The position numbers and the translations under genes were made by a program. From contig JBJHCT010000001.1 in assembly GCA_050486185.1 (NCBI GenBank), positions 6,919 through 70,918 of the forward strand: a DNA stretch of 64,000 nt. The letters run 5' to 3'. Shown here piece by piece: positions 20,662 through 22,110 of this stretch. Under the pieces are notes generated by a model. The model searched no databases, was not told the DNA's origin, and saw nothing but the letters and a program-made list of their open reading frames with translations. Source of the DNA: Candidatus Saccharimonadota bacterium (GTDB taxonomy: Bacteria; Patescibacteriota; Saccharimonadia; QS-5-54-17). Position 1 is the first letter of the stretch. Every line of letters starts with the position of its first letter.

Positions 20662-22110
20662 CCACTTATTAACCCAATATAATCCCAAGTCAGACACTTC
20701 TGAGTATATGCAGGATTTACTGCTAAAAGTTGGTGTCGGTAAGTTGCCGGAGTTTTTGGTCAAACAGCTTGATAAATTAAGCGTTCAACCTACCGATAAC
20801 CAAGCTTTCTTGGGCCTATCAGTACTTGCGCCGCTAGCTAGTAAATTAAATCTACAAACTATAAAAAAGGAGATCGAGGATCTATCTTTTCAAGTTCTAC
20901 ATCCAGACGAGTATCAACTGGCAGTTAAGATGCTTCGCTCAAATCAAGCTGATACCAATAAAAGACTCCTTAAACTAATTAATGAGTTTAAGATTAAACT
21001 AGAGGTTGAGGGTGTTAACTTCATCGATATATCTGGTAGGACCAAAGAGCCATATAGCTTGTATAAGAAGCTGCGCAAAGCCGGTAGCATTAGCAATGTA
21101 TACGACCTGATGGCTGTGAGGATCCTAGCTCCTAACGAGAAGGACTGTTACAGGGTACTTGATTGTCTAAACTCTCACTTCGAAGTTATCCTAGATCGAT
21201 ACAAAGACTACATCAAAAGACCCAAAAATAACGGCTACCAGTCTCTACATACAGCCGTATCGATAGGTAGGTCCTTGATAGAGGTGCAGATTCGCACTCC
21301 CAAGATGCACCAACATGCAGAGCATGGTTCTGCCGCTCATTGGCACTATGATAGTCAAAAAGTTAGCAAAAACTATCGCCGTGGTCTGGTGTCTAAATAT
21401 ATTAAACCGGGCAAGAAGTATGTTTATGTATTTTCTCCTGATGGGGATGTATATAGGCTGTCTGAGGGAGCGGTGGCTTTGGATTTTGCATTCGCTGTTC
21501 ATACCGGCCTAGGTCTAAGGACTAAAAGTATCAAGATTAATGATTCAATCGCTACTTTGGATAAAAACTGGTAGATGGAGACAGGGTAGAGGTTATCGCA
21601 GGTAAGGATATTGCTCCAAAACACGATTGGTTGAGGATAGTTAAGACCAAAAAAGCTAAACAGCGGATTAATACCTGGCTAAAAGAGAAGGAGAAAGATC
21701 ATTATCTGTCGGTAGGTAAGTCTCTTTTAATAGAGGTGTTTGAGGGTGAACTACCAGACGATTTAGAAGAAGTCTTGTCCAAATACGGCATGAAGAAGTT
21801 AGAGGAGCTGTTTGTATCTGTAGGCGGTGGATATATATCGCCTGCCTCTATAAAATCTCAACTTCAGATTCAGCAAGAACCAACAAAAACGAAAAAGCCG
21901 CCCAAGGCTTATCGTAAACAGGGCTCACAAAAAGTACTAGTCTCCGGTATGGATGACTTAGCTTATAGGCTGGCCAACTGTTGTAGTCCGGTTTCGCCCG
22001 ATAAAATTACCGGCTACATCACTCAAGGACTAGGTATTACTGTGCACAAACAAGGATGCAGTGAGGTCGATAGTTCTAGCGATAGGGTATTAGAGTGCTC
22101 CTGGATTTAA
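20651..22110 (+). pseudogene. rel: RelA/SpoT-family (p)ppGpp synthetase lacking the HD hydrolase domain, interrupted by a -1 frameshift in an A5 run
   Basis: Segment 1 (20651-21574) carries the synthetase motifs (DLMAVRILAPN..., YQSLHTAV, EVQIRTPKMHQHAEHGSAAHW) and the start of TGS (YVFSPDGDVYRLSEGAVALDFAFAVHTGLG...IKIND). The ORF stops just after ...IATLDKNW. The -1 frame opens at 21565 and continues with 'KLVDGDRVEVIAGKDIAPKHDWLRIVKTKKAKQRINTWL...', which is the expected continuation through the conserved Cys-containing CC region ('ANCCSPVSPDKITGY'). One extra A in the aaaaa run at 21563-21567 would fuse both parts. Confidence 0.8.
21563..21567 (+). other. A5 homopolymer at the Rel frameshift site
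   Basis: ...ttggat-aaaaa-ctggtag...; an A6 run would restore the reading frame. Confidence 0.8.

Follow-up and report, generated by a model that had tools for sequence, protein, structure and literature searches.

The window, as we call the whole stretch of 64,000 nucleotides of DNA from an uncultured Saccharimonadales bacterium analysed here, holds a single visible gene for an alarmone synthetase, and this gene cannot be read through in one frame. Is the interruption a change in the organism, a flaw in its assembly, or a signal for recoding? The original prediction described a rel (ppGpp synthetase) gene split by a -1 frameshift in a run of five adenines, with both halves otherwise intact, and offered a homopolymer sequencing or assembly error, a very recent inactivating mutation and recoding as explanations. 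Its description of the split is borne out by Pfam matches, by an alignment of orthologs and by an open downstream frame of 181 codons, and of its three explanations we favour the mutation. A single base has been deleted, the interruption is unique to this genome, and the sequence downstream shows no clear decay; we consider it probable that this represents a genuine and recent one-base deletion, which inactivates or truncates rel. We envision that the loss of one nucleotide within the TGS domain of this RelA/SpoT-family (p)ppGpp synthetase gene would, in this Saccharimonadales population, stop translation after 307 residues, keeping the synthetase domain and breaking the TGS fold by removal of its last beta-grasp strand, and that the AH and RIS/zinc-finger domains would be lost with the truncation. 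Judged from its sequence, the allele is most likely null or would, at best, give rise to an unregulated, unstable synthetase fragment.

The interrupted frame and the enzyme it would encode

The features of the locus, by position in the window and strand, are as follows.

20651-21574 (+): 5' part of rel, an open reading frame of 307 codons closed by a premature TAG (exact protein, P0002), comprising what remains of the hydrolase-to-synthetase linker, the whole (p)ppGpp synthetase domain (residues 129-237) and ~47 residues from the start of TGS
21562-21564 (+): TAA that closes the -1 frame upstream, read from the sequence
21563-21567 (+): run of five adenines, the site of the missing base by codon-level comparison with two relatives, L082 and L083
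21565-22110 (+): 3' part of rel, read in the -1 frame for 181 codons and a TAA (22108-22110), with the final strand of TGS, the alpha-helical (AH) domain and a RIS/zinc-finger domain bearing the CC...C motif
21572-21574 (+): premature TAG of the 0 frame, two codons past the A-run
21631-22110 (+): open reading frame of 159 codons (P0122), called mechanically from the first start codon (TTG) of the -1 frame, and the gene callers' annotation of the 3' part

The coordinates given in the original prediction for the first open reading frame, for its TAG and for the A-run were confirmed. The 307-residue product ends in ...IATLDKNW directly before the TAG, and the -1 frame, reading KLVDGDRVEVIAGKDIAPKHDWLRIVKTKKAKQRINTWL... 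from 21565, opens at that position because the TAA at 21562-21564 closes it upstream, as had been claimed. The two frames overlap by 10 nt only, and a change of frame is therefore confined to 21565-21571. Insertion of one base (A) results in a protein of 486 residues. The openness of the downstream frame is more than chance: at the frequency of stop trinucleotides in the window (0.071), a stop-free run of 181 codons has a probability of ~1.5e-6, and intervals this long make up only 0.5% of those from stop to stop in the window. Reassignment or readthrough of the stop codon was considered and rejected, as the 0 frame meets a second TAG four codons further on and homology is found in the -1 frame only.

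What kind of protein would the repaired frame encode? A Pfam search places the synthetase domain (RelA_SpoT, PF04607) at residues 129-237, covering positions 1-112 of a profile of 113 (E=9.8e-34, 116.5 bits against a cut-off of 27) and lying entirely inside the 5' open reading frame. It is followed at residues 258-316 by TGS (profile positions 1-59 of 60, E=1.2e-11), a match obtained with the repaired reading only; the real 307-residue product lacks the last ~12 residues of this domain, and its precomputed TGS match is graded 'weak'. Because the TGS match spans the junction at residue 305, the break lies inside a domain rather than between domains. Further downstream, residues 329-426 match RelA_AH_RIS (PF19296; profile positions 2-103 of 185, E=3.5e-7). 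The gene call for the 159-residue open reading frame on a Logan contig is likewise RelA_AH and RelA_RIS, and the ortholog alignment shows the cysteines invariant in the family (C444, C445 and C470) to be present. The alignment also contains the motifs RxKxxxSxxxK, DLxAxR, RYKDY, GYQSLH and EVQIRT, to which the structural literature on Rel ascribes catalytic roles.

The domains of the long RelA/SpoT homologues (Rel, RelA and SpoT; TIGR00691) thus recur here in the canonical order of synthetase, TGS, alpha-helical and RIS/zinc-finger, but the repaired protein differs from them in having neither the HD hydrolase catalytic region nor the C-terminal ACT/RRM domain: Pfam searches of it gave no HD_4 or HD match at E<0.01 and no PF13291 match. 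Its score against TIGR00691 (NCBIfam), 358 bits in a match beginning at about profile position 123, falls below the cut-off of 499.2, as is to be expected for a protein without two of the domains. The original identification as a ppGpp synthetase can therefore be kept as far as the RelA/SpoT family is concerned and needs correction as to type: by its predicted domains the repaired protein is an atypical homologue composed of synthetase, TGS and AH/RIS, lacking hydrolase and ACT domains as do all Saccharimonadales orthologs. The alignment indicates that this short architecture is not damage but common to a clade of 14 Saccharimonadales proteins. None of the 15 Saccharimonadales sequences has residues in the first 100 columns of the alignment, where Firmicutes Rel carries its HD motif, and Saccharimonadales Rel proteins stop ~85-95 residues short of the Firmicutes Rel C-terminus. 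The members of the clade (P0001 and P0003-P0015) have ~485 residues, and all score below the TIGR00691 cut-off. We found no description of a hydrolase-less Rel architecture of Saccharimonadales in the literature, and no route of (p)ppGpp degradation is visible in the window. In the long RelA/SpoT enzymes, the AH and RIS/zinc-finger domains tie activity to the ribosome.

Orthologs and the age of the deletion

All 14 Saccharimonadales orthologs are uninterrupted. They range from 473 to 521 residues and share 70% identity (P0001) or 42-51% identity (the others) with the repaired protein, which is colinear with them throughout and aligns across the junction without a gap, so that the claim that the -1 frame continues a RelA/SpoT sequence holds for its full 181 codons. 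Two of the relatives could be read as DNA. In L082 (GCA_040876925.1) rel is a single open reading frame of 486 codons and in L083 (a Logan contig) one of 484, and the gene order secD-secF-x-recJ-rel-rpsU-yqeY-ybeY-adk-map-ftsA is common to the window and both relatives. Within this order, recJ-rel-rpsU-yqeY-ybeY-adk-map occupies 19027-24639 of the window, 8380-14021 of L082 and 1385-6935 of L083, with Rel proteins that are 50-70% identical.

At the site itself, the window reads GAT AAA AA- CTG where the orthologs read GAT ACT AAA CTA and AAC AGT CGT CTA. The conserved Asp and Leu codons are separated by 5 nt (AAAAA) in the window and by 6 nt in both L082 and L083, which places the missing base inside 21563-21567. 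Neither relative carries an A-run here, the closest ortholog having ACT AAA. The original prediction had proposed that six adenines instead of five would restore a protein of ~487 residues; one additional base indeed restores the frame, but the product has 486 residues, and on this comparison the base that was lost may have been other than A.

As far as these sequences tell, no other genome shares the interruption. When the C-terminal 181 residues were used to look for other split rel genes among proteins, they retrieved only the 159-residue open reading frame of the window itself and a protein of 203 residues labelled 'partial' by its source. No conspecific allele was found in metagenome contigs searched with the repaired protein and with junction DNA in which the run could be A4 to A6, and the matches listed in a family-alignment search of genome contigs were generic RelA/SpoT sequences of 31-36% identity with no Saccharimonadales locus among them.

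How old might the deletion be? The ratio of nonsynonymous to synonymous change (dN/dS) to the closest ortholog is unsuitable for an answer, synonymous sites being saturated at 70% protein identity, and we used instead the ratio of identity to orthologs in the C-terminal part to that in the N-terminal part. It is 0.80 for the window, against a family mean of 0.80 +/- 0.06. Of the columns that are invariant in the 14 orthologs, the repaired protein keeps 75 of 76 in the N part and 25 of 27 in the C part (T317A and P449S differ), counts that are too small to separate the two. A downstream stretch of 181 codons that is still open, free of clear decay and conserved as in intact orthologs points to a recent deletion. 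An open downstream frame is, however, also what a sequencing error or recoding would leave.

Assembly error and recoding as less likely alternatives

According to the first of these alternatives, the organism has six bases at the site and an intact Rel of 486 residues, and the deletion exists only in the assembly. The break does fall in a homopolymer, the downstream frame is fully intact (with 25 of 27 ortholog-invariant positions kept), and a single read set stands behind both of the assemblies in which the exact 307-residue product is found, namely an NCBI contig of 264,553 bp and the Logan assembly of run SRR31311414. This run belongs to PRJNA1184692, a study of bauxite-residue remediation (bioRxiv 10.64898/2026.08.20.746091), whose shotgun reads were trimmed of Nextera paired-end Illumina adapters and assembled with metaSPAdes 3.15.4 (bioRxiv 10.64898/2026.08.20.746091). 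From its 10.6-kb multi-operon contig and from accession numbering, we infer that SRR31311414 is a DNA run and not a metatranscriptome, a point on which the paper is silent. The Logan contig and the window are 100% identical over 5,791 bp, the five adenines included.

Consensus indel errors at a homopolymer of five to six bases are very rare in Illumina data. The window moreover offers ample opportunity for such errors: it contains 194 homopolymers of five bases, 57 of six and 7 of seven, one T8 and one G10 (~260 of at least five bases), and thus 66 of at least six bases that are more error-prone than the A5. Nevertheless, no gene besides rel is split in the 64 kb, where ~60 others are intact. 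The 20 genes flanking rel equal their counterparts in the syntenic relative L082 in length, and among 40 further open reading frames compared with Pfam, those with matches mostly cover the profiles in full. Given Illumina data, two different assemblers that agree on A5 and the absence of any other split gene, an error of sequencing or assembly is unlikely, and we regard it as considerably less credible than a real deletion, close to the bottom of the range of explanations weighed here. That the reads truly carry A5 we nonetheless infer indirectly, and the A5 is a consensus from one sample, in which a fixed allele and a majority polymorphism look alike.

The G10 tract (31379-31388), the longest homopolymer in the window, could be either a phase-variable tract or a stretch of low-confidence assembly. 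It lies ~90 nt before the beginning of the target gene of a diversity-generating retroelement (31476-34592), which comprises this target gene with an Mtd_N domain (31476-32570), a bAvd accessory gene (32656-32994) and a reverse transcriptase (33525-34592). Its template repeat of 117 nt (TR, 33098-33214) and the 3' end of the target gene (VR, 32448-32564) share 82% identity, and ~20 of 21 mismatches between the two repeats are at template adenines. The element sits between the genes for ribonucleotide reductase and IleRS, and it looks inserted in this lineage because L082, the 70%-identical relative, has only an open reading frame of 87 codons there.

Could the two frames instead be joined during expression? 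A fraction of ribosomes might slip by -1 at U_AAA_AAC, or RNA polymerase might add an A, and full-length Rel would be made in either case. The A-run falls within the 10-nt overlap of the frames, the downstream frame is intact, and the site contains A_AAC, which is known as an A-site slippery element from sequences such as the coronavirus U_UUA_AAC. The original prediction had itself remarked that the site is no canonical slippery heptamer and that A5 is short for transcriptional slippage, and both remarks were correct. The 0 frame, GAU AAA AAC, gives U_AAA_AAC, which does not conform to X_XXY_YYZ because the P-site tRNA would have to re-pair on UAA. Transcriptional slippage wants an A or T homopolymer of ~8-9 bases or more, for which a run of five is too short. 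Downstream, segments of 62-100 nt are no more stably folded than dinucleotide-shuffled sequence (z = 0.26, 0.08 and 0.03), no Rfam match occurs in 20000-23000, and no GGAGG-like (SD-like) element was found upstream of the site. The comparison with programmed -1 frameshifting of the dnaX type (A_AAA_AAG) is instructive: a -1 shift in an A-run and the context of a Lys codon are shared, but dnaX-type sites have an upstream SD-like element and a downstream hairpin, whereas the rel site has neither and is unconserved in orthologs. All 14 of the latter do without an interruption, and the two read as DNA have ACT AAA and AGT CGT in place of the run, so that recoding fails the comparison with orthologs which the original prediction itself had named as a test. 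In the absence of a canonical heptamer, of a downstream structure or Rfam match and of any conservation of the shift, programmed recoding is unsupported, and we consider it the most improbable of the explanations.

A truncated enzyme or, more probably, a young pseudogene

If the deletion is real, as we think probable, might the shortened gene still be of use? Conceivably, the 307-residue fragment acts as a constitutive, ribosome-independent synthetase akin to a small alarmone synthetase, with or without separate production of the AH-RIS part from the TTG at 21631. As N-terminal fragments that lack the C-terminal region, RelA and Rel remain catalytically active, and in the present case the synthetase domain is complete, scores strongly and contains its motifs, and the downstream open reading frame is still open. 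The cut interrupts the TGS beta-grasp instead of falling between domains, however, which would favour misfolding, and unregulated synthesis would probably do harm in a protein that has no hydrolase domain. The search with the C-terminal part revealed no other Saccharimonadales genome with a split rel. The TTG at 21631 has no Shine-Dalgarno match, its anti-SD duplex being predicted at +0.3 kcal/mol against a window median of -3.7, a weakly informative difference since roughly one gene in four in the window likewise lacks an SD. There is no positive support for a separate C-terminal piece. Taken together, a tolerated or functional split seems to us an outside chance. We give about the same small weight to two related scenarios, in which a long RelA/SpoT enzyme has been caught becoming a small alarmone synthetase by domain fission, or in which low-level -1 slippage at U_AAA_AAC still provides some full-length enzyme.

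Start regions vary elsewhere in the window. Many genes have a TATAAT-like hexamer ~5-12 nt from the start codon and no Shine-Dalgarno match, as exemplified by the starts at 7109(-), 11972, 15713(-), 22407, 24662, 47117(-), 47618, 55889 and 57299, while other genes have strong GGAGG sites. The position of these hexamers suggests that the corresponding mRNAs may be leaderless or have very short leaders.

A recent deletion that disables rel would find ready parallels among the frameshift pseudogenes of reduced or host-dependent bacteria, in which a premature stop comes within a few codons of a one-base indel in a short homopolymer, the remainder of the gene is undamaged, and a single genome is affected while its relatives keep whole copies. 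The rel case differs from these only by the gene that was hit, the sole alarmone synthetase in view. Precedent for dispensing with such a gene may be seen in the closed genome of the Saccharibacteria Candidatus Teamsevenus rhizospherense, from which (p)ppGpp synthesis and also recJ are reported absent (Starr et al. 2018, PMC6031116). Like the window, this genome would represent Saccharibacteria that have no functional (p)ppGpp synthetase, with the difference that the gene is reported to be wholly absent there (PMC6031116), whereas rel is still recognisable and recJ intact here. It may be added that recJ adjoins rel in the window as in L082 and L083, and that both functions are reported missing in Ca. 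Teamsevenus rhizospherense (PMC6031116). By analogy, the loss of (p)ppGpp synthesis thus has precedent in Saccharibacteria, which would be in line with rel being dispensable (PMC6031116).

The rel locus is, then, most likely an ordinary young pseudogene of an already-known kind and not a case of programmed recoding. Little depends on this deletion. For annotation, the locus should be labelled a frameshifted rel pseudogene, rather than two genes or a recoding site. If the allele is real, a Saccharimonadales population from remediated bauxite residue has very recently given up, or ceased to regulate, the one alarmone synthetase to be seen in the window, and such a loss would fit the piecemeal loss of genes in reduced, probably host-dependent bacteria.
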